Virus record (IMG/VR): IMGVR_UViG_3300033148_004507
DNA length: 64,000 nucleotides
Strand: one strand, 5' to 3'
Source of the DNA: a virus
Taxonomy: Duplodnaviria; Heunggongvirae; Uroviricota; Caudoviricetes
Below the pieces are notes generated by a model. The model searched no databases, was not told the DNA's origin, and saw only the letters and a program-made list of their open reading frames with translations. Positions 8,455 to 64,000 of this stretch are shown here, in pieces (position 1 is the stretch's first letter; each line of letters opens with the position of its first letter). A program made the translations under genes and the position numbers.

Positions 8455-8961
8455 ATGTTGAATAGAACAATGAATTTTAATATACCGAACAGGGTGTGCG
8501 AGTATCTTGATGAGCCAAGAGACTGTATCTATAAGGGTAGAGAGAATATACACACCTGTTGCCAGGAAGAGTGTCCCTTGATGGTATTGTCTATGAGAGA
8601 AGGCAATTATATCCGAGAAGTTGGAGTTCTCGGCGGTAGGCTAAGAGAACAAGCTAATAAGATGGGGTTGAAAGAAACGGATTTGGTTTATATAGTGACA
8701 TCATCGACTTCAGGCAATCCGCTTCCTATATATGAATTGGAAAAGGTAGATGGTAGCCCATCAGAGTTTTTGGAGAAGAAGGTATTAGAAACATCGAAGG
8801 CAAAATTATCTCCAGAGGAGAAAAGAAAAAGGGCAATTGCCTTTACAAAAGTTATTGATGATATAATCAATGACCCTGATTTCGAGGATAAGCTTGACCA
8901 AATGCCAAGAGATATGTTCGAGATTTCAGAAGAAGAATTGAAAAGAAGATTTACAATGTAG
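8455..8961 (+). CDS. hypothetical protein (Cys-rich N-term)
   Basis: 168-aa ORF in same-strand array; CQEECPLM. Confidence 0.5.
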   Translation: MLNRTMNFNIPNRVCEYLDEPRDCIYKGRENIHTCCQEECPLMVLSMREGNYIREVGVLGGRLREQANKMGLKETDLVYIVTSSTSGNPLPIYELEKVDGSPSEFLEKKVLETSKAKLSPEEKRKRAIAFTKVIDDIINDPDFEDKLDQMPRDMFEISEEELKRRFTM

Positions 8962-8972
8962 GTGATGAAAAA

Positions 8973-9263
8973 ATGGGCAAGCCAAGTTTGAAGCAGATTG
9001 TGGTCAAAACAATCGGGGATTATGTTGAGATAGAGCAACACGTCAAGGAAAGCATGGCTAATGAGGTGGTTCAAGCTTGCCAGAAATTCCACAACTTCCC
9101 ACCAGTGGAACCATCGCCTAAAGAAGCTCCAGAGGGTGATGAGGATGTGAAAGTCTGTACTCGTTGCCAGGGTAGATTAAAAATGTCTGAAGCAATATTG
9201 GATGCCTATATATGCTCAGTCTGTGGGCAGTATTACAAGGCTGAAGATGTGGAGGATGTCTGA
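8973..9263 (+). CDS. zinc-ribbon protein
   Basis: CTRCQGRLK ... CSVCGQYY. Confidence 0.55.
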   Translation: MGKPSLKQIVVKTIGDYVEIEQHVKESMANEVVQACQKFHNFPPVEPSPKEAPEGDEDVKVCTRCQGRLKMSEAILDAYICSVCGQYYKAEDVEDV

Positions 9264-9264
9264 T

Positions 9265-9555
9265 ATGGATAAAATTAGCAAGAGAACGCAGGTATTGATG
9301 GCTATTAGAGAATTCGAGTTATCTGAGGGCCGTGGAATAGGATTTAATGAACTGGTTGAATATATGGACTTAGACAGAGCATCAATATCACTATCTTTGG
9401 ATTTTCTTGACGATATATGGCTCATTCATCAGATTGATTCAAAGTCTGAATTAATTGTTGGCACATGGGGGAAGTTAATATCGACAAGGGTGGACAAGCA
9501 GGCATTCATAGACGACAGCATAAGAAAGATTAAAGATGATGTGGGGGATGAATAA
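9265..9555 (+). CDS. putative winged-helix DNA-binding protein
   Basis: ATG 9265 in-frame in track ORF 9202..9555; QVLMAIREFELSEGRGIGFNELVEYMDL resembles MarR/ArsR-type wHTH. Confidence 0.45.
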   Translation: MDKISKRTQVLMAIREFELSEGRGIGFNELVEYMDLDRASISLSLDFLDDIWLIHQIDSKSELIVGTWGKLISTRVDKQAFIDDSIRKIKDDVGDE

Positions 9556-9556
9556 T

Positions 9557-10051
9557 ATGGAACATAAGATTACAAAAGACGATGTTGAAACATTGATGGG
9601 GCATGGCAAACTACATCTGCCAAATGACGATTGGTTGATATTCTATTATAATACTATCGAGTGTCCGACCTGCGAGGGTAAGGGTGAAGTTCGGGAAAGG
9701 GATGGCTCACGGTTTCGTGGTGACGGCCATTTACACATGAATAAGTGTAAGCCATGCAACGGCACAGGCCGAGTACCCAAGACCTATCGCATATCATGTC
9801 CCAAGTGCAAGGAAACCAGGGATATGGCCTTTGACGGGAACTGGCAATGTACTGTGTGTGGTTATGAGTTTTCAGGCAATCCTCCACACATGATAAAGGA
9901 AGTACCCAAGCCACATCAATGCGATAAATGTTATTGGATTAGGTCTGAAATAGAAACAATATTGGGCATGGGTTATAATGAGGAAGAGATGATAGAAAGA
10001 TTGAATGTTCTTAAGAATGATATAGCTCCCAAGCCACAGGGGGGGAAATGA
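9557..10051 (+). CDS. DnaJ-type CxxCxGxG zinc-finger protein (paralog 1 of 3)
   Basis: ECPTCEGKGEV ... CKPCNGTGRVPK plus further CxxC pairs; ATG 9557 after GGGGGAT SD; C-term ...APKPQGGK encoded by AAGCCACAGGGGGGG junction. Confidence 0.6.
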   Translation: MEHKITKDDVETLMGHGKLHLPNDDWLIFYYNTIECPTCEGKGEVRERDGSRFRGDGHLHMNKCKPCNGTGRVPKTYRISCPKCKETRDMAFDGNWQCTVCGYEFSGNPPHMIKEVPKPHQCDKCYWIRSEIETILGMGYNEEEMIERLNVLKNDIAPKPQGGK

Positions 10052-10284
10052 TGGACACAATCAGAATCTTCAAATGCTATAAAGAAGTCACGCCAGCAGT
10101 AAAGGTCGGAGATGATTTAGTTAAGGGTCGGGCCGTTCCAGTGAAATCATTGGGCAGGGCAACAATTTCAATGGCGAGAAAGGTTGGGTTGGGTGATAAA
10201 GATTTCGTGATTGTATCTATCAAGAAGCTTGAGAGCAGTCCGATAGATTTCGTCAAGGATAAGTTTCGTACAGGTGGTGAGTAG
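10048..10284 (+). CDS. hypothetical protein
   Basis: 78-aa ORF; ATGATG overlapping upstream stop. Confidence 0.5.
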   Translation: MMDTIRIFKCYKEVTPAVKVGDDLVKGRAVPVKSLGRATISMARKVGLGDKDFVIVSIKKLESSPIDFVKDKFRTGGE

Positions 10285-10474
10285 TATGATGATTGCAGGA
10301 TGTATATTGAGTGGTTGCGATAACATTGTGACTCATGAGTTAGGTGGCCGTGGGCTATGCTGTGAGTGTTATAAGAAGGTAATACTTGAAATGCTGGAGA
10401 AAGCGATGGAAACAACACACGATTATCTGAATCTGGGTAATGAGATTGATACTATTATGGAGGCGATGGAATGA
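10274..10474 (+). CDS. zinc-ribbon mini-protein
   Basis: CILSGC ... CCECY. Confidence 0.45.
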   Translation: MVSSMMIAGCILSGCDNIVTHELGGRGLCCECYKKVILEMLEKAMETTHDYLNLGNEIDTIMEAME

Positions 10475-10477
10475 GTT

Positions 10478-10498
10478 GGAAAGGTCAACGACCTTTCC
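10478..10498 (+). terminator. perfect hairpin GGAAAGGTC-aac-GACCTTTCC
   Basis: 9-bp inverted repeat with 3-nt loop immediately after stop of 10274..10474; no clear T-tract, so terminator/operator role is tentative. Confidence 0.35.
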
Positions 10499-10568
10499 TC
10501 GACCTTAATGGGGTCAAGGGATGTGTTATATATGAGGCAGATTAGATTACAAGCAGAGGTGATGAAAG

Positions 10569-12496: not shown

Positions 12497-12663
12497 GAGG
12501 AAAGGCTTTTATGGAAATACAGTGTTATGCTATGTGAAGTGGTGGGTGGATTTTGTTAGACTCTCTTCCCCCCGATTAAGTTTTCTTCTTCGCCTTCCAC
12601 TTCTTCATCATTCTTATACTGGCCTCGCAGATTCCTTTGCGGGGCTTTCTTCTCAGGAATTAT

Positions 12664-12713
12664 GACCGCAAAACTATTTATACTCGGAACCCCTACGATG
12701 TGACGGTGATAAC
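12664..12713 (+). promoter_or_regulatory. recurring promoter/RBS cassette: GACCGCAAAACTATTTATACT...GTGACGGTGATAACATG
   Basis: BRE/TATA-like AAAACTATTTATA ~35 nt upstream of ATG; GGTGAT SD 4 nt before ATG; one of ~8 copies in the window. Confidence 0.6.
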
Positions 12714-12932
12714 ATGACAGAAAATGGAAATAAATGTGAAGAACGATGCCCAACTTGTAATGAACTTTGCGAGATTGCAGAGGACAACCATAAAGTCTGG
12801 GTTGAAAAATACGGCCATGCAAAAGGCAGAACTATGAAAGGCCATTATCATTGGAATGGGACAAAGTTACATGAATGGGTCACATTTCCAGGGTGTGAAA
12901 AGGTGAACCAACAATGCCAAGAAGAAAATTAA
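12714..12932 (+). CDS. zinc-ribbon mini-protein
   Basis: ATG at end of promoter cassette; CEERCPTCNELCE. Confidence 0.55.
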   Translation: MTENGNKCEERCPTCNELCEIAEDNHKVWVEKYGHAKGRTMKGHYHWNGTKLHEWVTFPGCEKVNQQCQEEN

Positions 12933-13229: not shown

Positions 13230-14553
13230 GAGCTTGGTAAGGGTGAGTCAACGACCACACAGAACAGAAATGGTCTGGGGGCGAGTCTGAGCAATCAGAC
13301 TTGTGCGTTGATTAGGAGGCAATGAAAAGAATGAAAACCATGCAGAAGTTAGACGGGAGAGATACATACACACCTACGGATGCTCCACAAGTCCGTAGCA
13401 ACTGTGATTCTGTGATTAAACATGACTGCGAGGTAGGTCAAGTGTTACAGAGTTTGAAAACCCCGTCTAACAACTCCGATGTGGACTTACTCCAGCATAC
13501 AGGAGGGCATAATGCCACTATGTATGCATATGTTATAAATAAGAATGGAAAACCACTGATGCCCTGCAAACCTGCCAAAGCAAGGCATCTATTGAAGCAA
13601 GGTAGAGCCAAAGTAATCAACAGGAAGCCATTTACAATCCGACTATTATGGGATTGTGAAGATAATGTGCAACCGATTACGCTAGGCATCGATGCAGGCT
13701 ATAGCAAAGTTGGTTTCAGTGCCGTGTCTGAGAGTAAGGAATTGATGTCTGGGGAGCTAACATTACGAAAAGGCATCAATAAACTCATCGAGCAGAAAAG
13801 CAACTATAGAAGAACAAGACGGAATAAACTTTGGCATCGCCCACCGAGATTCCTGAACAGAGCCAAACCAAAAGGTCGCCTACCTCCGAGCATCCAACAT
13901 AAGCTCGACAGCCATATTAGGCTTGTCGAACAAATGAAAGCAATCCTGCCGATAACAAATGTTATTGTCGAGGTTGCGAATTTTGACATCCAGAAGATAA
14001 AGAATCCAGACATTAAAGGAGTCGAATACCAACAAGGGGAGCAGATGGGCTTTTGGAATGTAAAACCTGTCATGAAGAGCATCATGCGGGTATTGATATA
14101 ATCTCAGCAGTGGCAATCAAGAACTTCAAGCCAGAAACCTTTATGACGGTGGTTAATTGGAAGCTTACAGAACTATTAAATTGTGAGCATACCTTTGGCT
14201 ACATCACGAAGCATAATAGGATTAAGCAAGGTCTTGCAAAGAGTCATGTAAATGATGCGTTTATAATTGCAAGAGGTCATAGTCAGGGGCGATGCAAATA
14301 TTATGAAGTCAATCAAACGAGGAGAAATAATAGAAGCATACAATTGAATCGAAAAGGCTATAAACCATCTATCAGAAGAAAAAGATATAAGCTCCAATCC
14401 AATGACTTAATTAGAGATTCACAAAACAACACTGTTCTGAGAGCAAAGGGTGTATGCTCATATGGGCGGTCAATAAAATTGGAAGATGGGAGATATACAA
14501 ATGTTAAAAATATAAAATTAATATGTTATGGTAAAGGGATATGCTATATATGA
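13230..14553 (+). mobile_element. IS200/IS605-type iscB element (copy 2), left boundary approximate
   Basis: direct repeat of 6880..8339 (by-eye ~85% identity); preceded by a 200-nt noncoding stretch 13121..13321. Confidence 0.7.
13322..14553 (+). pseudogene. iscB: IscB copy 2, inactivated by ~139-bp out-of-frame deletion removing the N-terminal half of the HNH domain
   Basis: same PLMP/RuvC-I/bridge/RuvC-II as copy 1, then ...FWNV | KTCHEEHH...HVNDAFIIARG; CQHCKGK...QVHHIN segment absent; ORF split into 13322..14101 and 14053..14553 at the same TGGAATGT site as copy 1. Confidence 0.8.
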
Positions 14554-15052: not shown

Positions 15053-15300
15053 AAGGTGTTGAAGCTGTAGTCAAATCCATGCTCTATGCACTGGTTGGTG
15101 TTATGGTAGTTATGGTTGTTATGTCATTCTACTTCATGTATTGCGCATATCGGGCATTTCAAATCGGAACCGATATTGGCAACTTTGTTGGTGGGGCATT
15201 GTTGGTACTGTCTGGGGCCATATTACTTGGGTCAATTGGAATCCAGCAATTTGTGTTCCCGTTGTTGGAGATTAAAACAGATGGTGGTGAAAAAGAATGA
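15049..15300 (+). CDS. small membrane protein
   Basis: 83 aa, 2-3 hydrophobic helices. Confidence 0.5.
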   Translation: MKGVEAVVKSMLYALVGVMVVMVVMSFYFMYCAYRAFQIGTDIGNFVGGALLVLSGAILLGSIGIQQFVFPLLEIKTDGGEKE

Positions 15301-15773
15301 AAATCCCAGATAGAATAAACTATAGTGCCTTGAACTTTCCGATATGTAATTTCGTGGTTCTTGAGGAGGCTGAGAGGTTGATAATACCTGATTACCAGAG
15401 AGATTATATCTGGTCTGATACTCAGAAGGGGTTGTTGATAGATAGCATCTTTAAAAGCATACCGATTGGCAATATATTCCTTAACGAGAGGGGTGGCAGT
15501 CCAGCCTATGAAATTATTGATGGTCAGCAAAGACTTACTACACTATTTAAGTTCATGAATGATGAGTTTGCTTACCAGGATGTGTACTACAGTGAATTGC
15601 CAGATAAGTACACTGCGAGGATAAGTCATTTCGTAGTCCAGACTTATATCACTTACTACACAGATGTTAAGGACATCCTCAGATTGTATTATGTATTGAA
15701 TTGGGCAGGGACACAACATAATGTGGAGGAGATGATTAAGCTTAAGAGGCAGGCGGGTGAAGAGGATGGATGA
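15297..15773 (+). CDS. DUF262 (ParB-like, GmrSD N-terminal-type) domain protein, stand-alone
   Basis: IIPDYQRDYIWSDTQKGLLIDSIFKSIPIGNIFL...EIIDGQQRLTTLFKF: canonical PxYQRxYxW and DGQQR motifs; no DUF1524/HNH nuclease partner domain. Confidence 0.8.
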   Translation: MKIPDRINYSALNFPICNFVVLEEAERLIIPDYQRDYIWSDTQKGLLIDSIFKSIPIGNIFLNERGGSPAYEIIDGQQRLTTLFKFMNDEFAYQDVYYSELPDKYTARISHFVVQTYITYYTDVKDILRLYYVLNWAGTQHNVEEMIKLKRQAGEEDG

Positions 15774-15920
15774 AAAAAGCTATGATGCGACAATTAGAAT
15801 TGTAAACGAAAAGTGCGGTGAAGTCTTTAATTGCCAGGGTGTTACAGGGATATTAGGATTTAACAGAGAGGCTGGAAGCTGTGGAACGTTACATTGATAG
15901 GGATGGCTGACTGAGATTAT

Positions 15921-15970
15921 GATAGCAAAACTATTTATACTGAGAACGCATACAAAGTGACGGTGATAAC
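15921..15970 (+). promoter_or_regulatory. promoter/RBS cassette copy (GATAGCAAAACTATTTATACT...GTGACGGTGATAACATG)
   Basis: same cassette as 12664, 24856, 36584, 42045. Confidence 0.6.
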
Positions 15971-16096
15971 ATGGCAGGAAACAACGAAACAATAAACATT
16001 GGCGACCTTCCCGTAATAATTACGGAGGAAGAGGCTGAAGCAATAATCGGACTGTATGAGCATCATATTAAGGTAGTTATGTCTGGAGGAGTTTGA
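15971..16096 (+). CDS. 41-aa leader ORF (not in ORF track)
   Basis: ATG 15971 at end of promoter cassette; MAGNNETINIGDLPVIITEEEAEAIIGLYEHHIKVVMSGGV; TGA 16094-16096 overlaps ATG 16097. Confidence 0.45.
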   Translation: MAGNNETINIGDLPVIITEEEAEAIIGLYEHHIKVVMSGGV

Positions 16097-18289
16097 ATGA
16101 GCATATATGATGAATTGGGCATTGAGCCAGAGCAGATAGACAAAGAGGCCAAGATTGGGCATCCAACAGAGACAATAGTGAACGGCGAGAGGGTGCTGGA
16201 CTTTCCAGTATCTTATTTCTATAAAGGGAAAGTAAAAAATTTCGAATTGCGAGTAGTTCCAGACAAGCAGATTTCCACAGTTACCGATAAGAAACCAGGG
16301 GACGATGACCTAATGGAAACGGAGATATTAGCTCTTGGTATGACTCATAATGAGATATTGGATTTTTTCCCACCGTACAATGCCAAATCACCATACCCAT
16401 TCACACTGAAAGCGATTATAAGGAGCATAATCTTCGAGGCATTTGTTAACCGAGATGTGAACCATCTGGCTGGCGGTATGGTGAGAGCATTCTGGTATAC
16501 TCATTTGATTCATGTTATAGAGAACATACTTGGTCTTGGAGAAACAGATGTTGTCAAATCGACCATCAACCAGGCTTGGGAGGACTTGATAACCAGTGGT
16601 TTGGTCACATACGATGGGATGAACATCAGGTCAGATAGCGAAGGTTCGACACACTATCGAGTCAAGGACAGTCCTTTCTCCAACTTGATAATTGCGGTTG
16701 AGAAGGATGATAAATTCGAATATATGAAGTGGATGCCTCGGTTGTTTAACTGCACACTGATGACTGCTGGCGGTCAACCTAGTAGAGCGAATGCCAGACG
16801 ATTCATCATGGATATTCGAGATAAGGCCAGGATAAATTTGAACCAAACATTCTATATGTGCGTAATATCTGACTTAGACCCTGCTGGATACTACATCCAG
16901 AGAAGCTTTAAGAACCAGTTGGAGAAGGCTATTCAATATTACGGCGGTACTGGCAAGATAGAAATCAAGAGGTTATTCGTTGGAAAAAACCAAGTCACAC
17001 AATCATTGTTGGAGCATGATGCGATTCCTTGCTATGATAAGGGTAAGTCAGATAAGGCAAAGAAGGCAGAGAATACTAAATGGGATTATTTCTGTGAGCA
17101 GACGAATGGTGGAATCTATAAGAATGTGCCGAGAAGTGTTGCACTGAGTCTTGGGGCTATTGGCCCGAATGAGCATGTTGATTCTGAAACTGTGAGGGTT
17201 CGTGCCAAATTGGAATTGAACGCATTCCCTGACCACATCATCAATGATAGGGTCATCAAGGAGCTTCTGAAAATCATCGAGGAGACATCTGATGAGAGCT
17301 TGATTATGATTCCAGAGATTATGCGAATCTTCGAAGAAGAGAGGGAAAATGCGATGCAGGAGATTTACGAGAGGGAGCATAAGGTCAAGATTGCACCTTT
17401 CATTAGGAATTTCTTAAGGGACATTGACATTGAGCAGATGAGGAAGAGAAATCTTACTAGGGATGAAAGCCAGAAGGTTGAGGATGAGTTTGAGGAACTA
17501 AAAGAAGAGGTCGAGGAGCCATTCAAGGAACGAATTGAGGAACTTGAGGAAGAGGCCGATGAGAGAGTTCCAGACGAGCTTGCAGAGAAGAAACGGTTAG
17601 AGGACTTGATTATAGGGCTTGCAGACAAGCTTGATGATGTTAAAGAGGACATCAGGGAAAAGACCCAAGACCTTCTTGACGACATTGAAGAGCAGGAACG
17701 TGAGATGGAAGCTGAGATGATGCCTCACGAAGCAGAACGGGATGAGAAACTGGAAGATATTCAGAATAAGGGGGAATATAGGCAGGAGGAGCTTGAGAAG
17801 TTCAAGCGAGAGAAGGAGACGTTGTTCAACCCGATAGAGAAAGCGTTGATGAAAACTATTAAGGACTTGGTTAAACAGGATAATCTTGAGTTCTTCTTTG
17901 ACGATTTGGAGGCTGATAGGAAAACCAGGGGTCACATATCCAAATTGATACACGACCCGACTGCTTTGCTGGATGAGGAGATGCCTTGTCTGGAGCATGT
18001 CTATCCAGTATTCAAGGAGAAGGATTTGTTGAGGAAGGCTAGTGACGAGCAGATGGAGAATGTGGAGGCACACAGGCGAGGCTTCACCACAGATTTCTTA
18101 GAGGATATGCGACAATTAGTTCACCAGGGGGTCGAAGATAGAGGTTTCGAATTCGAGGTTCGAGAGATTGGTGAGTTGGAGGACTTTTCTGATGAACTCA
18201 TAGAGCTTGTCGAGCAAATTGAAAAGGACATCGAGAACGGTCTGTATAAGGACGATGATGATGGTGACGAGGGGGCTGGCGAATGGTAA
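16097..18289 (+). CDS. Spo11/TopoVI-A-like (putative 5Y-CAP + Toprim, Mini-A/JetD-type) protein fused to a ~400-aa acidic coiled-coil
   Basis: LIIAVEKDDKFEYMKW...LMTAGGQPSRANARRFIMDI...FYMCVISDLDPAGYYI = VEKD / GxP..RRF / DxDPxGxxI Toprim signature of TopoVI-A/Spo11; upstream VRAFWYTHL is a candidate R-x-h-F/Y-Y catalytic-Tyr motif; residues ~330-730 are E/D/K-rich heptad-like. Confidence 0.6.
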   Translation: MSIYDELGIEPEQIDKEAKIGHPTETIVNGERVLDFPVSYFYKGKVKNFELRVVPDKQISTVTDKKPGDDDLMETEILALGMTHNEILDFFPPYNAKSPYPFTLKAIIRSIIFEAFVNRDVNHLAGGMVRAFWYTHLIHVIENILGLGETDVVKSTINQAWEDLITSGLVTYDGMNIRSDSEGSTHYRVKDSPFSNLIIAVEKDDKFEYMKWMPRLFNCTLMTAGGQPSRANARRFIMDIRDKARINLNQTFYMCVISDLDPAGYYIQRSFKNQLEKAIQYYGGTGKIEIKRLFVGKNQVTQSLLEHDAIPCYDKGKSDKAKKAENTKWDYFCEQTNGGIYKNVPRSVALSLGAIGPNEHVDSETVRVRAKLELNAFPDHIINDRVIKELLKIIEETSDESLIMIPEIMRIFEEERENAMQEIYEREHKVKIAPFIRNFLRDIDIEQMRKRNLTRDESQKVEDEFEELKEEVEEPFKERIEELEEEADERVPDELAEKKRLEDLIIGLADKLDDVKEDIREKTQDLLDDIEEQEREMEAEMMPHEAERDEKLEDIQNKGEYRQEELEKFKREKETLFNPIEKALMKTIKDLVKQDNLEFFFDDLEADRKTRGHISKLIHDPTALLDEEMPCLEHVYPVFKEKDLLRKASDEQMENVEAHRRGFTTDFLEDMRQLVHQGVEDRGFEFEVREIGELEDFSDELIELVEQIEKDIENGLYKDDDDGDEGAGEW

Positions 18290-21444: not shown

Positions 21445-22553
21445 TGGCTGGAACCAGGCACTCATCGAAATTCTTCAAGCCTACTGAGAAGTTCTTGCAT
21501 TGGTTCAAGGGCTATGTTGGTAACACTCCCGTTACAGATGCAGGCTGTGGTACGGGCCACTTCGCCAAGGCTCTGAATGAAATCGGAGTGATAAAGATTC
21601 TCGGTCTTGAGATTTGGCCGTGTTCGAATCCAGAATACGATACAATCATTGGGCAGGATGCGACAACGTTTGCCTATTCACCAGGCTCTATAGTTACTAT
21701 AGTGCGACCAAATAGGGGTGAATGGATTCATAAGACCATAGAACAAGCCCTCTACACTGCCGAGCAGGTTGTGTACATCGGCTTGCCAAAGCATTGGGAG
21801 GATGACATCAGACCTTTGATTGGCGAATACGACATGTGGGATATTGTCGATAAGTATCTTCATGAACCTGTGGGTGAGGATGGCGAGTATGCTTACATCA
21901 TCAAGAAGAAGTCTGGCAACCCTAAAGAACCGATTATGCAACCTGTTATTGTAGAAGAGCCTGAAGAAACCTATCTGCCTCCAGTGAGGGGGATGATGAG
22001 GAAGAAAGATGCCCCTCCCAAATACATCCGAAAGCCAGCCAGCAAGAAAGGCAAGCCGTGTACTAAGTGTGGTGGTGAAAAATATTACGATGACGATAAT
22101 CCAGACGGCATGTGGTGTTATAACTGTGGTCTTGTAAACGTAACTGGCCTGAATTACAATGAAAAGTTCGATTTCAGTGAATATGAAAACGATGATGACG
22201 ATGGGTATTATTTGATTGGTGGTCGGAAAATCCAAATCCAGACCCTACTTAATTATCTCAGATTCAGAAGAGGGTCTGGGGCAGAACGTGTACTGTATCA
22301 CAAACTTGTACTGCTGGAGGCTGGCTTTGGGGAAAGGCATGGCGATAGCGATTACGATGTAGAAATAAGACGTAATAATAATTGGGTAGATTACTTCGAG
22401 AAGTGGATTGAAGCTTATATGGGCGACCCTCTTGGGGATATTGCATGGGAAAAGGCGAATCTTGATTATTGCTCGAAGTGTAACAAGGAAATTAAATTCG
22501 GGGATGCTAGGATGAACTATCCTTCAGGTGTTGTATGCATGGAGTGTGGATAA
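21420..22553 (+). CDS. class-I SAM-dependent methyltransferase domain fused to Cys-rich zinc-ribbon regions
   Basis: VTDAGCGTGHFAKAL (motif I) ... ILGLEI (motif II acidic); CTKCGGEKYY...CYNCG and CSKCNKE...CMECG; no DPPY/NPPY DNA-MTase motif IV seen. Confidence 0.6.
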   Translation: MASGVDTMMAGTRHSSKFFKPTEKFLHWFKGYVGNTPVTDAGCGTGHFAKALNEIGVIKILGLEIWPCSNPEYDTIIGQDATTFAYSPGSIVTIVRPNRGEWIHKTIEQALYTAEQVVYIGLPKHWEDDIRPLIGEYDMWDIVDKYLHEPVGEDGEYAYIIKKKSGNPKEPIMQPVIVEEPEETYLPPVRGMMRKKDAPPKYIRKPASKKGKPCTKCGGEKYYDDDNPDGMWCYNCGLVNVTGLNYNEKFDFSEYENDDDDGYYLIGGRKIQIQTLLNYLRFRRGSGAERVLYHKLVLLEAGFGERHGDSDYDVEIRRNNNWVDYFEKWIEAYMGDPLGDIAWEKANLDYCSKCNKEIKFGDARMNYPSGVVCMECG

Positions 22554-23224
22554 TGCAGAAATACTCTAAACCTTTGAGGATAAAGCATCATAAAATAAAT
22601 CTCAATCCTAAGAAGAGATACCTGGGTGACTCAGACGTTAAGAAACTACTCTCTGGAAAGGTCTATGTTGAGGAGAAGCTAGATGGCTCTCAGTGTGGGA
22701 TTGCGTTCAAGGGTGGCAAGCCAATCGTGTATACGAGAAATAGTCACTTATCAGAGTATGATAAAAGGGTGGCCTTCAAGGGTCTTTGGGATTGGGTATG
22801 GTCTAACTTAGATAAGGTTGAGAGCATACCGAAGGGATGTAGGCTGTGTGGGGAGTGGCTGTATGTTCAGCATCATGTTGTCTACGATAAGCTCCCAGAC
22901 TACTTTATGGCATTTGATATTCTGGATGAGAGGACTGGTAAACTATTGCCGTATAAGTCTAAGGTTGCCATATTCGAGGCTCTTGGAATTTCATATGCTC
23001 CACTTGTTTTAGAAGGCATGGCTACTAAAGATGATATTTTTGAGGCATCTCAGGGGTTCAGCAATTTCAGTACGGTGGATGCCAGAGAGGGCGTGGTTGT
23101 CAAGTCCGACAAGTCTGATTTCACAGGAAAACTTGTAGCCCAAGAATTTCTGGACGGCATTGAGGATGTCGGGCATTGGACATCTATAGTCACTGCGAGA
23201 TTTAATAAATTAGGGGTGGTATAG
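22553..23224 (+). CDS. minimal nucleotidyltransferase of the ATP-dependent ligase/capping-enzyme superfamily (RNA-ligase-like)
   Basis: motif I EEKLDGSQ (KxDG), motif III/IV region CGEWLY...FMAFDI, motif V EGVVVKSDKS; TAATG start at 22553. Confidence 0.6.
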   Translation: MQKYSKPLRIKHHKINLNPKKRYLGDSDVKKLLSGKVYVEEKLDGSQCGIAFKGGKPIVYTRNSHLSEYDKRVAFKGLWDWVWSNLDKVESIPKGCRLCGEWLYVQHHVVYDKLPDYFMAFDILDERTGKLLPYKSKVAIFEALGISYAPLVLEGMATKDDIFEASQGFSNFSTVDAREGVVVKSDKSDFTGKLVAQEFLDGIEDVGHWTSIVTARFNKLGVV

Positions 23225-24777: not shown

Positions 24778-24855
24778 AACCCATCATAGGCACGATGTAA
24801 TTATCCCAAATTCCATCCCATCTGTGCCTATGCGGGTTCCTTTCACTTTGTTTTT

Positions 24856-24905
24856 GACAGCAAAACTATATATACTTTGGATGTATACTATGTGATGGTG
24901 ATAAC
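24856..24905 (+). promoter_or_regulatory. promoter/RBS cassette copy (GACAGCAAAACTATATATACT...GTGATGGTGATAACATG)
   Basis: directly precedes ATG 24906 (MTGDK...). Confidence 0.6.
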
Positions 24906-26213
24906 ATGACAGGCGACAAATTATTTGAATCGGAAAAGACGGAGAACGGATACCTAATCCGCTTCCCGAAGCACAAGCTGGATGACTTTGTGGAAGGTAT
25001 AACTCCTATCCAGAACAAGGCCAAGAAGCTAGGTCTTGGCGAGATAACTTACGAAGTTATTGAAACTTATGATGTAGGCACACCAATTACCATACAGTCT
25101 TGGAAGAGAGATTATGAGATGACTGTCAGGGTCAGGTGGGTTGCAGTTAAAATTATAGGGGAACCGCCAGTTCTTGACGGTTGGAAATTCATCGCATCAA
25201 TGGATGCTTCTGATGAGTTTGGAGTTCTTATTAGGAAGATACCTGACGAGGATGAGGTCATACCTGTCAAATATCTTAAGGACGGTGGAAATCCACGACT
25301 CTGTGAGCAATGCAACAGGAACACGCCACGAAGCAAGTTATACATCGTCAAGAACGTTGAAACAGGGGAATGGAGGCAGGTTGGTTCGACCTGCTTGAAA
25401 GACTTCATAGGTAATGTCACCCCATCCGAGATTGCACAATACTGGCATCTCTTGTATTATGTGGCAGAGGGTTCAAGCGATATGTTTGGTGGCGGGGGAT
25501 TTAGGGAATACGCCAAGCACAATCTTGTGGAATATCTGACTTATGCAAATATGCAGATTCGAAATCACGGATACTTATCAGTCACAAGAGCCGAGGAGCT
25601 TTCAGATATGCTTCGCAGAATCTCGCCGACCTGCGAAATCATTGATTCCATATTACAAACGATACACACAAAGGATAATAATTATGACCATTCAGTGAAT
25701 CCAATCACGATGGACGACTATGTGAAAGCAGAGCAGGTCATCGATTGGGCAATGGAGCTTTCAGATGTGGTGTGCGAGAAGAGTACCTACATGGCAACAA
25801 TTAGGACGATTGCTCAATCTGGCAAAGTACCTTCAAGGCACATGGGGTATGTGGCATCTATGATAAATTCACACACCAAACACCTCTCAGACATGAAGAG
25901 GCTGGACAAAGTTTACGAATATCTGGATGTGGAAGTTGGTGTCAGGTTCGACATTGATGGGGCCGAGGTCATTGGAATCAGGTCATTTGAAAGTCGGTTC
26001 GGAACAACATTCATCTACGACATGGCAAAGGGGAATAACCTCTTTGTCTGGTTCACTGGCAATGAAGGCATGATGGCTCTGGGGGACACGGTATCATTCA
26101 GGGCGACATTGAAGAAGTTCGATGACTATAAGGGCTTGAAGCAGACTGTTGTGACCAGGGCCAAGGTCACGGTGACAAAGGAGGCATTCAAGCTATCTGG
26201 GGGTGAGTCTTAA
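24906..26213 (+). CDS. hypothetical protein, N-terminus MTGDK shared with 36635 and 42095 genes
   Basis: 435 aa; CEQCNRN...GSTC zinc-binding pair. Confidence 0.55.
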   Translation: MTGDKLFESEKTENGYLIRFPKHKLDDFVEGITPIQNKAKKLGLGEITYEVIETYDVGTPITIQSWKRDYEMTVRVRWVAVKIIGEPPVLDGWKFIASMDASDEFGVLIRKIPDEDEVIPVKYLKDGGNPRLCEQCNRNTPRSKLYIVKNVETGEWRQVGSTCLKDFIGNVTPSEIAQYWHLLYYVAEGSSDMFGGGGFREYAKHNLVEYLTYANMQIRNHGYLSVTRAEELSDMLRRISPTCEIIDSILQTIHTKDNNYDHSVNPITMDDYVKAEQVIDWAMELSDVVCEKSTYMATIRTIAQSGKVPSRHMGYVASMINSHTKHLSDMKRLDKVYEYLDVEVGVRFDIDGAEVIGIRSFESRFGTTFIYDMAKGNNLFVWFTGNEGMMALGDTVSFRATLKKFDDYKGLKQTVVTRAKVTVTKEAFKLSGGES

Positions 26214-28106: not shown

Positions 28107-28628
28107 ATGAAAACACTGAAGCGGATTCTATTCATCTCAGACGATTTCCCTGGGGATAGGTGGGAAGATAAAAAAGAGGACTGTGAGCCTGGTGATTACT
28201 TCTTTGGCGGTGGCGATGATGAGGCCAACTGGCTTAGATTTGAGTTCCATCTGATTGAGAGTTTTAAAGAACTCACACCAGAGGGGTTCGATGCGGTCTT
28301 AGTGGATTATGGTCTAGTCAATGATGCTAAGAATATGAAGGTATTAGAGAGGATGTGCAAGGATAATATCCCAATCGCCTGGGTCAGCGGTTTTGATAGT
28401 TGGTGCAATGCAGATGCCAAGGATAACTTCCCAGGATTTCCATTATTGTATAATTTGCCGACATCATGCATCGGAGATGATGACATACTGATACTACTAT
28501 ACGAAATATTCAGAGAAAATAAAGATAAAATAGGAGGAATAAAATATGTTGAAGAACGAAAATGGAATAGTGAGCAGGGAGATGAATGCAATGGCAATGG
28601 GGGGGTCAGGCCATGTTTGATGATATGA
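28107..28628 (+). CDS. hypothetical protein
   Basis: 173 aa. Confidence 0.5.
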   Translation: MKTLKRILFISDDFPGDRWEDKKEDCEPGDYFFGGGDDEANWLRFEFHLIESFKELTPEGFDAVLVDYGLVNDAKNMKVLERMCKDNIPIAWVSGFDSWCNADAKDNFPGFPLLYNLPTSCIGDDDILILLYEIFRENKDKIGGIKYVEERKWNSEQGDECNGNGGVRPCLMI

Positions 28629-29500
28629 GTGGCGAGAACAAGACCATCGTGATGATTGTGGCTTTGGTCGTGGTCGTGGCACTGGTCGTAACGTTCTTTA
28701 GCTCCATGATAGTGAACGTGGGGGCTGGACACAAGGCGATTGTCACAGACGGTTTCGATGTTGGTAGAACGTTTCATGAAGGCTGGAATGTGAAGAACCC
28801 GATGTCTGGAGTAACTAAGGTTCGTTATAACACTCAGGAAGTGACCGAGATTATCTCAGTCAGAGCCGAGGATGGCTATAACGTGGATGTTGACTGGACG
28901 ATTCGGTATCATCTACTTGAGTCCGAGGTATCAACTATACAGATTGAGAACCCTGATTATGTGTCTACTACGATTTCTCCAGAACTAAGGAGTATAGCTC
29001 GTAAGGTGGTATCCGATAATAACTGGACTGGTGAGATGCTAAACAGGGAGAAAACATTCTATGAGGATGCAGTCAGTGATATGCTTACAGATAGGCTACT
29101 TGATTACGGCATAGTGGCCGAGGCTATATTGATACGGAACTTGAATTTCCCTGCGACTGTGAATCAAGCATGGCAAGATAGAGCATCTGCTGAAGTTAGT
29201 GTAGAAACCGCAGAATTCAAGCTTACCGAGGCTGACTTGTTAGCACAGCAGGAGATTGTGATTGCCGAATCGGAGGCGAATGCGACTATCGTACTTGCGA
29301 TTGGTCAGGCAGAAGCACTGAGTATATTGGCTGGAGAAACAGACAGTCTCGACAACGGAACGATGAACTATATATTGAGTTTGAAGTACATCCAGATGTT
29401 GCGTGACCCAGAAACCAATGTCGAGTTCGTACTGGTGACGGATGGCACTACCAATCCATTTATACTGGACTTGCCAGAGTTGGGCGAGGAGGCTCCATAG
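28613..29500 (+). CDS. SPFH/band-7 (stomatin/prohibitin-like) membrane protein
   Basis: N-terminal TM (IVMIVALVVVVALVVTFF) then VNVGAGHKAIVTDGFDVG ... Ala/Glu-rich helical tail; ATG 28613 in-frame in track ORF 28586. Confidence 0.6.
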   Translation: MFDDMSGENKTIVMIVALVVVVALVVTFFSSMIVNVGAGHKAIVTDGFDVGRTFHEGWNVKNPMSGVTKVRYNTQEVTEIISVRAEDGYNVDVDWTIRYHLLESEVSTIQIENPDYVSTTISPELRSIARKVVSDNNWTGEMLNREKTFYEDAVSDMLTDRLLDYGIVAEAILIRNLNFPATVNQAWQDRASAEVSVETAEFKLTEADLLAQQEIVIAESEANATIVLAIGQAEALSILAGETDSLDNGTMNYILSLKYIQMLRDPETNVEFVLVTDGTTNPFILDLPELGEEAP

Positions 29501-31680: not shown

Positions 31681-31694
31681 CTCTTCACCGTAAC

Positions 31695-41847: not shown

Positions 41848-42044
41848 TGCCTACGGTAATATGCGGATACTGTATGTATGTCGGTCAGGGCGAATGTGAA
41901 ACTACAATGTGGCAAGATGCTCAAGTACATGAGTTAGAACACCACATGGAAGAACTTATAGATGAGTATGGGCAAGACCACATTGATTACCTCAAAGAAG
42001 TCTATGAAGAAGAGCTTAAGGTGAAGGCCGACACTAAAGGTTAG
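41847..42044 (+). CDS. hypothetical mini-protein
   Basis: TAATG start 41847; CGYCMYVGQGEC. Confidence 0.45.
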   Translation: MPTVICGYCMYVGQGECETTMWQDAQVHELEHHMEELIDEYGQDHIDYLKEVYEEELKVKADTKG

Positions 42045-42094
42045 GACAGCATAACTATATATACTGCTGATGTATACTAAGTGACGGTGATAAC
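42045..42094 (+). promoter_or_regulatory. promoter/RBS cassette copy
   Basis: GACAGCATAACTATATATACT...GTGACGGTGATAACATG. Confidence 0.6.
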
Positions 42095-51671: not shown

Positions 51672-52016
51672 ATGAAGCATTACACAGCGACACACCCTGG
51701 CAGGGTTGGTATGAAACGTTCTGCACCATTATGTGACCCCGACTTGGATGAAAGCCACATAAACAGCGTTAGTAAAACAGATTGCCCCGCTTGTCTTAAA
51801 ATCATAGCCGAGAACCCTATAATCTGCGAGAGTTGTGGCTGGCCTAATCATGTGCCTCATAAGAAAGATAAAGCTTCAGAAAAGAAGGAATGGTGGTTCT
51901 GTAATAAGAATAGCATGATGGTCTATGACCAGATGTGCTATGATTGTTGCTTCATTGATGAGATTTGGGAGTGCCTTGATGTTCGTGATAAGCCAGAGAA
52001 GAGGGGGGGATTGTGA
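51672..52016 (+). CDS. zinc-ribbon protein
   Basis: CPACLK, CESCGW, CYDCC. Confidence 0.5.
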   Translation: MKHYTATHPGRVGMKRSAPLCDPDLDESHINSVSKTDCPACLKIIAENPIICESCGWPNHVPHKKDKASEKKEWWFCNKNSMMVYDQMCYDCCFIDEIWECLDVRDKPEKRGGL

Positions 52017-52168
52017 TGTACGAGTGTGATTTTTGCGACCATAGGGAAGAGGACATCGACATGATGAAGGAGCATATCAAGGAAAACCACATTGAAGAAT
52101 TCTATGACTATTGCTTTGATGAATGGGCTGACGACTTCATAGCAGAAATTAATGAGGTGGTTGATTAA
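52016..52168 (+). CDS. 50-aa C2H2-type zinc-finger mini-protein (not in track)
   Basis: CDFCDHREEDIDMMKEHIKENH = C-x2-C-x12-H-x5-H. Confidence 0.45.
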   Translation: MYECDFCDHREEDIDMMKEHIKENHIEEFYDYCFDEWADDFIAEINEVVD

Positions 52169-55581: not shown

Positions 55582-56028
55582 ATGGTAGACAAGATTGGAT
55601 TTTATATCAGAAAGAAAGAGTATGGGTTCTTATCGAACTTTCATAGGGCCGAGCAGACGATTGACGGCATTACATATCCTACCAACGAGCATTATTATCA
55701 GTCCATGAAGGCCAAGGATGGGGATGTCAGAAAGTGGATAGCATCCTCTCCGAAGGCGTTCCAGGCTATGAAAGCAGGTCGTTCATTGAGGGACAAAGAG
55801 ATGGTGGATGATTGGGACGGCTACAAGCTCGAAATCATGCAGAAGGGTCTTATGGCTAAGTTCGCTCAGAACTCTGGCTTGGCTCGGATGCTCATAGAGA
55901 CTGGTGATGCGGATTTATTTGAGGATAGTCCAACAGATATGTTTTGGGGTGGTCGGCTTGAGGGTAGTAAAAACTACCTGGGGCATCTGCTCATGATTGT
56001 CCGTGAAGAACTCATGCGTGGTGAGTAA
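55582..56028 (+). CDS. NADAR (YbiA/DUF1768-like) domain protein
   Basis: FYIRKKEYGFLSNFHRAEQTIDGITYPTNEHYYQSMKA closely matches YbiA/NADAR core (GFLSNF ... YPTxEHYFQAxKF). Confidence 0.8.
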   Translation: MVDKIGFYIRKKEYGFLSNFHRAEQTIDGITYPTNEHYYQSMKAKDGDVRKWIASSPKAFQAMKAGRSLRDKEMVDDWDGYKLEIMQKGLMAKFAQNSGLARMLIETGDADLFEDSPTDMFWGGRLEGSKNYLGHLLMIVREELMRGE

Positions 56029-62511: not shown

Positions 62512-62517
62512 TTGGGG

Positions 62518-62925
62518 ATGGGTCATGAGCAAGATTTATTGAAAGAAGGCGACATCATCATGTTACAGATTGGTGATACTGTATTATTTGAGATTCCAGC
62601 CCATTTTCTATATGGTAATAGGGTGGGGGTATTCAACGAGGTTAGCAAGGATGCTGTCGTGATAGGAAACCACAAGGGTCTTAACACAGAGTTCTTAGCG
62701 GGAGAATATGTGGTCATCAAGACTGCTATGGATGGCGGTGGAACTGGACACGGTGACAGTGATTCATATCCAGATGGTCATCATGTGTGGTGTGAAAAGA
62801 TGTTTGATTGGGGTATCGGACACCCTGGCATACTGGTGGATTTCTTTCAGACTGGTTGCTTTACGGCTATGCTGAAGGATAGAAAACCAACAGGAAAAGC
62901 CGAATTGACATGGAAGAAGGTGTAA
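62518..62925 (+). CDS. hypothetical protein
   Basis: ATG 62518 in-frame in track ORF 62512. Confidence 0.5.
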   Translation: MGHEQDLLKEGDIIMLQIGDTVLFEIPAHFLYGNRVGVFNEVSKDAVVIGNHKGLNTEFLAGEYVVIKTAMDGGGTGHGDSDSYPDGHHVWCEKMFDWGIGHPGILVDFFQTGCFTAMLKDRKPTGKAELTWKKV

Positions 62926-62928
62926 TCA

Positions 62929-63153
62929 ATGCCTGAACACATTAAGTCATGCCCCTTCTGTGGGGCGAAAGAAGTCGAGATTGCGAGAACGAATGAGAAT
63001 GCTTGTTGGGTGGAATGTGCTTCATGCGGAGCTTCATCACCATCAACGAAGAAGAGGGAAGATGCGATAGCGATATGGAATGAGAGGCATTTGCCAAGTG
63101 GAATATCTGCGACAATCGTTTATGACATGGATGCAGAGCAAAGGAGTCGATAG
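62929..63153 (+). CDS. zinc-ribbon mini-protein
   Basis: CPFCGAKE...CWVECASCGA. Confidence 0.5.
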   Translation: MPEHIKSCPFCGAKEVEIARTNENACWVECASCGASSPSTKKREDAIAIWNERHLPSGISATIVYDMDAEQRSR

Positions 63154-63154
63154 T

Positions 63155-63331
63155 ATGGATATGAAACGTAAAGTACGTGTGTCAAGAACATACACATACA
63201 CCAGGGAGGAATTAGAAGAAAAATTAGGGCTGGAAGGTAAGGTTGAGCATGTATCTGATAATAACAGACGACACCTACATCGTTCACCGAAGCCTCCATT
63301 CGAGATTACAATAAGAACGACAGGAGAGTGA
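63155..63331 (+). CDS. 58-aa hypothetical
   Basis: ATG 63155 in-frame in track ORF 63080. Confidence 0.35.
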   Translation: MDMKRKVRVSRTYTYTREELEEKLGLEGKVEHVSDNNRRHLHRSPKPPFEITIRTTGE

Positions 63332-63505
63332 ATGGGCATGGGTAAGGAAAGAGAGAGCAAGATGTTCAGAGATTTCAGTACAGACAAATTGAAGGGCATG
63401 TCTGAGAATGCAGGTATTGAGCTAGAGAGAATACAGGCCAATTACGACCACACCAAGAACTACAAGAAGAATCTTGACAAATTGATTGAAAAGAGGTTGA
63501 TTTGA
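63332..63505 (+). CDS. 57-aa hypothetical (not in track)
   Basis: TGAATG junction; TGA 63503-63505 then ATG 63506. Confidence 0.35.
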   Translation: MGMGKERESKMFRDFSTDKLKGMSENAGIELERIQANYDHTKNYKKNLDKLIEKRLI

Positions 63506-63676
63506 ATGCCAACTGCCAATTTCAAGTGTACAGTATGTGGACAAAAAATGGAATGGGAAGTTGATGACCTAAATTTCAAAGAGACTGATGTTCCAGAAGA
63601 TATGTTGGATTGCTCAGTTGTTTCTTGCCAACGTCTTGGGGGAAGAATGAAACTGCTAAATGTTGAGGATGATTAA
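63506..63676 (+). CDS. 56-aa zinc-ribbon mini-protein (not in track)
   Basis: CTVCGQ...CSVVSCQ. Confidence 0.35.
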   Translation: MPTANFKCTVCGQKMEWEVDDLNFKETDVPEDMLDCSVVSCQRLGGRMKLLNVEDD

Positions 63677-63808
63677 ATGGCATTGTGCGAGTGCGGTGGG
63701 ACATATTCAGTGTTAGATGATAAGTGCAATAAGTGTGGTAAGAGAAAGATGGTATGCACGAAGGCTGTGGATGTAGTAAATGAAGTAGGAGATTTCTTAG
63801 GGTTCTAA
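63677..63808 (+). CDS. 43-aa zinc-ribbon mini-protein (not in track)
   Basis: CECGG...CNKCGK. Confidence 0.35.
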   Translation: MALCECGGTYSVLDDKCNKCGKRKMVCTKAVDVVNEVGDFLGF

Positions 63809-63815
63809 AGGAGGT

Positions 63816-64000
63816 ATGAAAATGGGTTGCGGAGCATTAATTGGAAAAGAGATACACGATTATATTGAGAATGGAGAGCCGATGCATAAGTATCGCTGTG
63901 AACACTGTGGTATAGAAGTATTGGTCGAGGGTGAGGATGCCAGAGTGCATTGTGTCCAGTGCAAGGCGAAGTTAGAGTATTGCCCAAGAATGATGAAAGT
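63816..64000 (+). CDS. zinc-ribbon protein, 3' partial at window end
   Basis: GGAGGTATG start; CEHCG...CVQCK; runs off window. Confidence 0.4.
   Translation, partial: MKMGCGALIGKEIHDYIENGEPMHKYRCEHCGIEVLVEGEDARVHCVQCKAKLEYCPRMMK

Follow-up and report, generated by a model that had tools for sequence, protein, structure and literature searches.

The 64,000-nt stretch of DNA in IMG/VR virus record IMGVR_UViG_3300033148_004507 (the window, by which the whole of this length is meant) contains long co-directional runs of very small genes, many of them for cysteine-rich proteins, and it raises the question of what kind of genetic element is organised in this way. An earlier sequence-only reading had taken positions 8455–64000 for an archaeal mobile element or virus-like replicon and not for a chromosome. 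On balance, we favour the view that the window represents most of the accessory, non-structural arm of a double-stranded DNA (dsDNA) virus-like extrachromosomal element of ~126 kb, most likely archaeal and belonging to an undescribed family.

Exact-protein look-ups placed the window within a 126,219-bp contig (JGI samples 3300033153 and 3300033149), the same DNA occurring in two JGI samples. In one assembly this contig was split into pieces of 42.5 and 84.2 kb, with the break at ~42.1 kb of the window. By walking along the 84-kb contig, a total of ~113.8 kb of the 126.2-kb contig was analysed, and this is the DNA covered by the negative results given below for the element as a whole. Folds were predicted for two proteins.

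The cysteine-rich arm

Genes were called by a simple dynamic-programming tiling of the plus strand, which agreed closely with the JGI calls on identical DNA. The window was tiled by 150 genes at a coding density of 96%, 147 of them on the plus strand and three on the minus strand (30356–32324). The median product was 100 amino acids (aa) long and 34 products were shorter than 60 aa. Neighbouring plus-strand genes were coupled by ATGA-type 4-nt overlaps in 40 cases and by TAATG-type 1-nt overlaps in 22. The use of nearly one strand only and the many coupled sub-60-aa open reading frames (ORFs), both pointed out in the sequence-only reading, were thus borne out. A purine-rich Shine-Dalgarno motif was located at −12 to −8, with GGAGGTGA as a strong ribosome-binding site; of the 147 upstream regions, 31 contained GGAGG (~2 expected) and 53 contained GGTG (8.5 expected). 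The GC content of the element is ~0.40, and the GC skew was positive along the whole window except for a low-GC island at 30–36 kb. Only four short tandem repeats were detected in the 64 kb, and no inverted repeats of at least 40 nt. An alternative genetic code as the source of the small ORFs was considered and rejected in view of the 96% coding density with the standard code, the use of all three stop codons (TGA 77, TAA 51, TAG 19) and the Shine-Dalgarno motifs before the starts.

The Cys-rich co-directional arm comprises ~190 short genes and runs from 8.5 to ~84.8 kb in window-equivalent positions. Cysteine made up 2.67% of the residues encoded at 8455–64000 and 2.8–3.1% across the 8.5–84.8 kb arm (3.1% in the 64–84.8 kb part). 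The motif CxxC was found 92 times at 8455–64000, compared to 18.3 ± 4.1 times in within-protein shuffles (shuffle maximum 32). By a strict count, 29 of 140 proteins contained at least two Cx2-4C pairs (8.3 ± 2.3 in shuffles), and 43 were included by a loose count (at least two knuckles allowing His, and at least three Cys). The figure of roughly 50 ORFs carrying at least two CxxC pairs, given in the sequence-only reading, was therefore an overcount, although the enrichment itself is very strong. On the same element, the Cys content was 1.1% in the surface-protein module and 0.19% in the paralog array described below. Since these internal controls are Cys-poor, the enrichment is not an artefact of composition, and a lower Cys content in the other arm is to be expected if that arm is secreted or structural and the zinc proteins stay inside the cell.

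The features of zinc ribbons and treble clefs (two knuckles, four Cys/His ligands, a small domain) were recognised among the mini-proteins, and weak Pfam matches were obtained to DZR, Zn_Ribbon_1, Zn_ribbon_IS1595 and DnaJ_CXXCXGXG. The zinc-type proteins did not form a single paralog family; kinship was detectable by BLAST only among three proteins of the DnaJ type (Table 1). The C2H2 finger that had been pointed out previously was found as well. From the number of Cys pairs, between a fifth and a third of the products of the arm look like zinc-binding proteins of one or two domains. About 16 of the 140 proteins of 8455–64000 showed a family match in Pfam or PHROGs. As regards annotated libraries, the statement that most genes are ORFans is thus upheld, but it does not extend to metagenomic sequences, in which the 730-aa protein treated below has 91 homologs.

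Copies of a module of ~50 nt were found at 12.7, 15.9, 24.9, 36.6 and 42.0 kb, and less strict ones near 46.7, 57.4 and 60.9 kb. The module consists of GAYAGCAAAAC, TATWTATAC, ~22 nt, GTGACGGTGATAAC and ATG, and its core promoter motif occurred seven times compared to 1.36 expected. With its repeated A-rich element and TATWTATA box, the module looks like a promoter with a transcription factor B recognition element (BRE) and a TATA box, followed by a short Shine-Dalgarno-bearing leader. Sigma-70-like promoters (60 compared to 51 ± 7 in shuffles) and intrinsic terminators (12 compared to 10.6 ± 3.2) were not enriched. The earlier description of both Shine-Dalgarno and promoter motifs as archaeal may hold for the BRE/TATA-like module but not for the Shine-Dalgarno sites, which fit bacteria equally.

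A 95-nt duplication (36598–36692 and 42058–42152) was observed to take in a promoter module together with the beginning, ~13 codons (MTGDKDSTGNGAG), of two genes that are unrelated in the rest of their length, and its second copy coincides with the break between two contigs of sample 3300033153. The true start codon of the gene at the first of these copies is probably at 36635.

The module divides the arm into several predicted co-directional transcription units, each headed by a copy of it, and the genes within the units are joined by strong Shine-Dalgarno sites and by ATGA or TAATG overlaps. The mini-proteins would then be made from long polycistronic early or middle transcripts under archaeal TBP/TFB-type promoters. 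They may bind DNA, RNA or proteins, as regulators, host-takeover factors or anti-defence factors, and would work beside RNA-repair, nuclease and ADP-ribose-processing enzymes.

The largest gene of 8455–64000 encodes a 730-aa protein, also the largest unannotated protein there, which had no sequence-level match in Pfam or the PDB. The structure-based annotation that the sequence-only reading had proposed for larger ORFans was applied to this protein. Its AlphaFold2 model (mean predicted local distance difference test score 85.8) was matched by Foldseek in the PDB first to chain 1d3y_B, the A subunit of topoisomerase VI (Topo VI) of M. jannaschii (Top6A), with a probability of 0.99, and next to type IIA Toprim domains. 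The protein contains the conserved motifs R-x-F-W-Y (5Y-CAP-like R-x-x-W-Y), VEK and SDLDPAGYYI (Toprim DLDPAG). Among 50 homologs, R130, W133, Y134 and D259 were invariant, and E202 (in VEK) and D261 nearly so. The 5Y-CAP domain with its Tyr and the Toprim Glu and DxD that define the Topo VI-A/Spo11 superfamily are thus present by motifs and fold. A search with the family profile against PDB sequences returned only coiled-coil noise, and the link to Top6A comes from the motifs and the fold search. No family match to a Top6B or GHKL ATPase partner was obtained with Pfam or PHROGs in the ~113.8 kb.

Stand-alone relatives of Topo VI-A are carried by mobile elements as 'Mini-A', Topo VIII A-like and JetD-type Toprim proteins. 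The 730-aa protein resembles stand-alone relatives in its R-x-x-W-Y and E...DxDPxG motifs and in having M. jannaschii Top6A as the best fold, and it differs in its unique acidic coiled-coil tail of ~300 aa and in the lack of a Top6B-like partner nearby. By its model and motifs it is assigned as a stand-alone Top6A/Spo11-like protein. The 91 metagenomic homologs were 28–79% identical to it and were located on contigs as long as 231,725 bp.

The second arm and the wider family

Past the Cys-rich arm, an HNH_3 protein, a tyrosine recombinase, a DUF4326 protein, tRNA-Gln(UUG), an AT-rich gap, a 543-aa ATPase, a GNAT acetyltransferase and an intact IscB follow in this order. They are succeeded by an AT-rich module (GC 0.33) that encodes multi-pass membrane proteins, by proteins of 793, 1074 and 193 aa and by the paralog array. 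The genome is thus polarised into an accessory arm and a surface/membrane arm. The tyrosine recombinase (184 aa) is a weak match (Pfam 2e-6) and lies ~2 kb upstream of the tRNA gene, for which comparison with phage records gave partial, uninformative matches only. The AT-rich stretch between the tRNA gene and the ATPase operon is a candidate for the replication origin or for an attachment region, and replication would begin at this region adjoining the ATPase.

The Walker A motif of the ATPase was shown to be split by a mini-intein of ~140 aa, which begins with CQPK after GGTG and ends with ITKN before SGKS, so that the motif is restored when the intein is removed. The sole real match in phage records was the DnaA-like protein of the Haloferax lemon-shaped virus LSV-48N (tblastn 1e-20 with 30.8% identity over ~200 aa; BLASTP 1.2e-26), and the best PHROG was phrog_5484 'DnaA-like replication initiation protein' (3e-9). 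This type of ATPase is also conserved in fuselloviruses, and the DnaA-like AAA+/P-loop ATPase of the spindle-virus core is represented on the element by the 543-aa protein.

The 793-aa and 1074-aa proteins (L094:7575-13225; L011:10001-15597) each have a signal-like hydrophobic segment at the N-terminus, and their membrane helices at the C-terminus are glycine-rich and similar to each other. The ectodomain of the 793-aa family is beta-rich, and the 1074-aa protein is rich in N-x-S/T sequons, as is the anchored protein encoded downstream (193 aa; 219 aa in L011). By these features, the three proteins are candidate glycosylated surface or spike proteins. The AT-rich, Cys-poor module is, we infer, a particle or cell-surface module, and this arm would supply membrane and surface components.

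The array that follows consists of at least 12 consecutive paralogs with a common N-terminal motif and unrelated C-terminal domains. One of these domains was identified as DUF2240 (33.1 bits compared to the Pfam cut-off of 22.3). The shared N-terminal motif may act as a targeting or packaging tag. A 348-aa protein encoded downstream in a relative was considered as a capsid protein, and this was rejected; the protein belongs to the array and is of a charged coiled-coil type.

Protein clusters checked at 90% identity were all singletons or contained near-identical copies only. At lower similarity, the 793-aa and 1074-aa proteins had 18 relatives each, on contigs of up to 166 kb, and contigs of 97, 100 and 166 kb carried both. 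The 97-kb contig, from Logan, showed an 11-kb module syntenic with the element and also carried the N-terminal-motif array. In total, contigs of the family reached sizes of 97–231 kb. No relatives were found in IMG/VR in scans with the 730-aa, 435-aa and DUF5131 proteins, and phage records contained homologs of scattered accessory proteins only (phrog_2319, one paralog domain and the ATPase). A distant relative with a homolog of the 730-aa protein was observed in GCA_044344285.1 (L093; contig JAZHCH014395326.1, 231,725 bp); it encodes a LigA-type NAD-dependent DNA ligase, a PAPS-reductase-like protein, DUF5131, an 891-aa CARDB-like protein and a 1111-aa SNF2/ResIII helicase. Thus, larger members of the family bear more recognisable enzymes.

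Virus, plasmid or phage

No family match to a capsid, terminase, portal, DNA polymerase or integrase was obtained in the window with Pfam, PHROGs or the precomputed JGI Pfam annotation, in agreement with the earlier statement that no capsid, terminase, polymerase or integrase is recognisable in the 64 kb. Ribosomal or housekeeping genes were likewise not found in the ~113.8 kb. Judged by family matches, the accessory genes are of phage-like kinds (HNH, Lar-like, YoqU, DUF5131, NADAR, GmrSD_N-like, RNA ligase and RlaP, a tRNA and an intein), and together with the archaeal features given below this agrees with the sequence-only reading of an archaeal virus-like replicon as opposed to a chromosome. 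The element is an undescribed, probably archaeal, virus-like one. It may be circular and may form virions; no virion or packaging hallmark was recognised in the ~113.8 kb.

An archaeal affinity is considered rather likely and is based on several features. The tRNA-Gln has an A1-U72 pair and A73; M. thermautotrophicus tRNA-Gln has A1-U72, which is read by the archaeal GatDE, and work on the bacterial GatCAB centres on U1-A72 (PMC2811023, PMC2943598). The DUF2240 family, matched above its gathering score, is described as conserved in archaea, and further weak matches were to CPxCG zinc fingers and to uncharacterised archaeal families. Besides, the LSV-48N-like ATPase, the sequon-rich anchored proteins, the predicted BRE/TATA-like module and the lack of sigma-70 promoters and terminators above chance level were counted for an archaeal affinity. 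So was the nearest NCBIfam model of the RNA ligase, TIGR01209, which we take to be the archaeal Pab1020 group, the score being below the cut-off of that model.

Comparison with known archaeal viruses is consistent with this. Large ANME-1 viruses have one structural and one enzymatic arm (Laso-Perez et al. 2023, PMC9894754). The families Itzamnaviridae, Tepeuviridae and Ekchuahviridae resemble the element in their large dsDNA genomes, polarised halves, variable and singleton-rich accessory arm, and structural proteins invisible to standard profiles (PMC9894754). They differ in encoding HK97, double jelly-roll or hydrophobic spindle-type capsids and family B polymerases, none of which was found here, and a search of phage and virus records gave no sequence relative. 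With Fuselloviridae and LSV-48N the element shares the DnaA-like P-loop ATPase, a tyrosine recombinase and large secreted or anchored proteins (824 and 904 aa in LSV-48N), but its genome is 5–8 times larger and the ATPase is the sole homolog. No homolog of the small, highly hydrophobic alpha-helical capsid protein of spindle-shaped viruses was identified; several proteins of 80–150 aa with two hydrophobic helices (e.g., at 15049–15300 and at window-equivalent 88705–88986) were unlike LSV-48N proteins or PHROG capsid families.

Fuselloviruses encode many small zinc-finger proteins, including C2H2 types. In haloarchaeal viruses, small CxxC proteins are common and mostly encoded outside the assembly module (PMC7911831), and in Hardycor1 and the HF1-group tailed viruses they cluster, co-directional and tightly spaced, in the replication/accessory region as they do here (PMC7911831, PMC7230728). 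Hardycor1, however, has ~10 CxxC proteins out of 53 and a clear set of large terminase (TerL), portal and capsid, compared to at least 29–43 in the window, more beyond it and no hallmark set. The battery of small CxxC proteins is thus a known archaeal-virus signature found at an unusual scale, and the element itself is a new, unannotated lineage.

Several observations weigh against this view of the element. In the ~113.8 kb, neither a major capsid protein, portal or terminase nor a packaging ATPase of known type, DNA polymerase, primase or helicase was recognised. Zinc binding of the mini-proteins is predicted from their motifs. Other possible readings of the promoter module are a T4-late-like TATAAATA element, another phage-specific element or a promoter used by an RNA polymerase that the virus itself encodes, and with transcription starting where it is predicted for archaea the leader would be only ~8–12 nt long. 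As regards the host, the transposase described below had no relatives in GTDB species genomes and so gives no host link, and neither does IscB, because its relatives (n = 186, 40–54% identity) are scattered over many bacterial phyla and a few archaea.

That the element is a non-viral archaeal one, plasmid-like or similar to Borgs or Methanoperedens extrachromosomal elements, forming no particles and decorating the host surface with its anchored proteins, is regarded as unlikely but as a serious rival. The missing virion hallmarks would be explained in this way, and circular elements of Methanoperedens, which measure 53–535 kb with a GC content of 38–42%, have neither capsid nor relaxase genes and show a GC content similar to that found here (PMC13444090). 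The PKD and sequon-rich surface proteins, the many membrane proteins and the accumulation of insertion sequences and IscB also fit such an element. However, ~62% of the proteins of the circular elements match Methanoperedens (PMC13444090), and here almost no metabolic, host-like or host-derived genes were found. No family match to Orc1/Cdc6 or to another replication protein of the kind expected of those elements (Shi et al. 2026) was obtained with Pfam or PHROGs in the 113.8 kb, and partition, conjugation and relaxase genes were not found either. The mean gene size is far smaller than in those elements, phage-type accessory families and virus-type small zinc proteins dominate, and the ATPase is of a type found in a Haloferax lemon-shaped virus. 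Borgs are linear elements of 0.6–1.1 Mb that end in long inverted repeats, have tandem repeats throughout and carry Methanoperedens-like genes. Membership in the Borgs was rejected on the basis of size (126 kb), the four short tandem repeats in 64 kb and gene content.

Quite improbable, too, but likewise a serious rival, is a bacterial jumbo or large phage of which the window would be the early or accessory region, the head and tail genes being located in the remaining 12.8 kb or too divergent to be detected. Jumbo-phage early regions (T4/KVP40-like, SCTP-2, CcrColossus-like) have similar long co-directional runs of small genes, and Shine-Dalgarno-led coupled operons suit bacteria equally. Known homologs of several accessory families are located in bacterial jumbo phages: homologs of the phrog_2319 protein, ~25% identical, in Salicola phage SCTP-2 and the KVP40 group of Vibrio phages, and of another C-terminal domain of the paralog array in Caulobacter and Brevundimonas jumbo phages. 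Lar, YoqU, DUF5131 and HNH are typical phage families. In addition, two homologs of the 730-aa protein were found on contigs of 2 and 7 kb binned in bacterial genomes (Cloacimonadota and Zixibacteria), and one relative's contig encodes the LigA-type, bacterial-type NAD-dependent DNA ligase. On the other hand, TerL, portal and HK97 capsid proteins usually score in bacterial phages, and no match to these Caudoviricetes hallmarks was obtained with PHROGs or Pfam in the 113.8 kb. The ATPase is closest to a haloarchaeal spindle-shaped virus, DUF2240 scored above threshold, bacterial-type promoters and terminators were not enriched, the surface proteins are sequon-rich, and IMG/VR contained no relatives. 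The tRNA-Gln also shows A1-U72 and A73 and not the bacterial U1-A72 (PMC2811023).

An integrated provirus or genomic island in a cellular chromosome is very improbable, since the weak tyrosine recombinase near tRNA-Gln and the relatives on a 231-kb contig are countered by the lack of any housekeeping gene in 113.8 kb of the 126.2-kb contig, by two independent assemblies that end at the same left end, and by an internal, unbroken tRNA gene that is flanked on either side by genes of the element.

Further genes and the significance of the element

The positions of the features are collected in Table 1. Besides the zinc proteins, the arm encodes enzymes which by their predicted domains are typical of virus–host conflict and nucleic-acid handling (Topo VI-A-like, RNA ligase/RlaP, HNH, GmrSD_N-like, NADAR, Lar-like, phosphatase and IscB), and DUF5131 and YoqU were found as further phage-typical accessory families on the element.

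Table 1. Features of the window and of the adjoining DNA. Positions with an L number are not in window coordinates.
Feature	Position	Strand	Evidence or remarks
PKD surface protein, 1118 aa, 12 PKD repeats	26..3382	+	Pfam PKD_4 1.5e-126 in 12 stretches
RlaP-type nucleotidyltransferase, RNA repair pathway	6220..6957	+	Pfam RlaP 1.2e-13; phrog_388
IscB unit 1	6887..8339	+	HEARO RNA 6887-7132, Rfam 90 bits; RRXRR 1e-64
Cys-rich small-gene arm	8455..64000	+	~140 genes, median 99 aa, Cys 2.7%; extends past window to ~84.8 kb
DnaJ-type CxxCxGxG zinc-finger protein, five CxxC	9548..10051	+	Pfam DnaJ_CXXCXGXG and Anti-TRAP, both weak
Relatives of the 9548-10051 motif protein	19355-19849, 39746-40330		Paralogy by BLAST
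Promoter-leader module, copy 1	12657..12735	+	GAYAGCAAAAC-TATWTATAC, ~22 nt, GTGACGGTGATAAC-ATG; intergenic
IscB unit 2	13247..14553	+	HEARO RNA 13247-13490, Rfam 105 bits
GmrSD_N-like (DUF262) domain protein	15297..15773	+	Precomputed JGI Pfam match; phrog_1583 7.6e-33
Promoter-leader module, copy 2	15914..15992	+	Upstream of 41-aa ORF and 730-aa gene
730-aa Topo VI-A/Spo11-like protein	16097..18289	+	5Y-CAP and Toprim domains, long C-terminal coiled coil
RNA ligase	22544..23224	+	Pfam RNA_ligase 4.8e-26; phrog_24030
Promoter-leader module, copy 3	24849..24927	+	Upstream of 435-aa phrog_2319 gene
435-aa protein of PHROG family 2319	24906..26213	+	E = 1.2e-54 over full length
SPFH/Band 7 membrane protein	28625..29500	+	Pfam Band_7 6.5e-15; phrog_200
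Low-GC island (0.34-0.36)	30356..36400	.	Three minus genes (30356-32324; membrane and zinc-ribbon proteins), DDE transposase and neighbours; GC-skew reversal
DDE transposase, IS4/IS5-like	33639-35141	+	DDE_Tnp_1 4e-15, DUF772
Dual-specificity phosphatase-like protein	35959..36345	+	phrog_10650 2.2e-5
Promoter-leader module, copy 4	36578..36692	+	With duplicated N-terminal coding stretch (MTGDKDSTGNGAG)
Promoter-leader module, copy 5	42038..42152	+	88% identical to copy 4 over 95 nt
50-aa protein, C2H2-type zinc-finger pattern	52016..52168	+	YECDFCDHREEDIDMMKEHIKENH = C-x2-C-x12-H-x4-H, read directly
NADAR-domain protein	55582..56028	+	phrog_1017 6.6e-33
Lar-like restriction alleviation zinc-ribbon protein	62929..63153	+	phrog_599 8.5e-10
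tRNA-Gln(UUG)	L009:11837-11907		Cloverleaf fold, A1-U72 pair, A73
AT-rich non-coding stretch, ~0.9 kb	L009:11909-12790		Between tRNA-Gln and ATPase operon
543-aa DnaA-like/Zot-like P-loop ATPase	L009:13462-15093 (window-equivalent ~86.4-88.0 kb)		C-terminal helix-turn-helix domain
IscB unit 3, intact, 453 aa	L009:17186-18634		With HEARO RNA; outside window
Array of at least 12 consecutive paralogs	L094:14761-23225 (window-equivalent ~105-113 kb); L011:17067-21285		N-terminal G-W-x-G-E-S-x-R-H-x-x-A-x-x-G-(I/Y)-x-T

The window was found to contain mobile-element genes, namely a DDE transposase and two disrupted IscB/HEARO units. The IscB gene of unit 1 shows a frameshift at the RuvC-II/HNH junction (tblastn, frame change near residue 243), and that of unit 2 has lost ~38 aa and is frameshifted at the HNH boundary; in another assembly (L001), the breaks were located at slightly different positions. 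Both copies were ~86–89% identical in the RuvC part to the third copy outside the window, in which the organisation of an IscB/OMEGA unit (RRXRR RuvC and HNH, with HEARO ahead) is intact. The low-GC island that contains the transposase gene is probably inserted DNA. No clear terminal inverted repeats of the transposase were found, and its true start is probably downstream of 33639, because the first codons of the ORF contain the promoter-like motif TTATGACAGCAAAACCAT.

The DNA of the PKD gene showed repeats with periods of 258–261 and 519 nt. On its 3′ side, two proteins without family match are encoded, one of 382 aa with a hydrophobic segment at either terminus and one of 244 aa. If the genome is circular, these three proteins may be part of a surface or adsorption module. 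The PKD proteins had been taken previously to suggest a methanogen-type host, which is not supported: the gene is outside 8455–64000 and does not point to methanogens in particular.

Two adjacent genes (58693–59544 and 59612–60613) were seen to be paralogs with 38% identity over 285 aa, the former with a weak winged-helix or transcription-regulator-like match at its N-terminus (phrog_633, 7e-4). The longest stretch of the window without a confident gene (60613–61083, ~470 nt) consists of a 226-nt intergenic gap and two doubtful short ORFs. A 20-nt tandem repeat (60757–60812, 2.8 copies) lies within it, as does a palindromic TGTACAACTAATTAAT...ATTAGTTGTACA element, and the stretch may serve in regulation or binding.

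If the element were to be a divergent tailed phage instead, the finding would be an ordinary one. On our favoured view of an archaeal virus-like element, it concerns large archaeal viruses and extrachromosomal elements, which are among the least known genetic elements. We tentatively suggest, at a low level of confidence, that it belongs to a new high-rank lineage of large archaeal viruses, in which the particle would be built around the AT-rich membrane/glycoprotein module from proteins unrelated to known capsid folds, at least 12 cargo proteins would be recruited via GWxGESxRHxxAxxG, and the largest known battery of zinc ribbons would serve host takeover.

The family is present on at least 90 metagenome contigs and was not found in the viral collections searched (IMG/VR and INPHARED), possibly because the hallmark genes used by automated pipelines are lacking. 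Its definition would supply the Top6A-like protein, the 793-aa and 1074-aa surface proteins and the N-terminal-motif array as markers. The stand-alone Spo11/Top6A-like enzyme, the intein inside the P-loop and the three IscB/omega-RNA units on a virus-like genome are leads of independent interest, and the arm of ~190 genes represents a concentrated natural test set for the role of zinc-binding mini-proteins in virus–host conflict.

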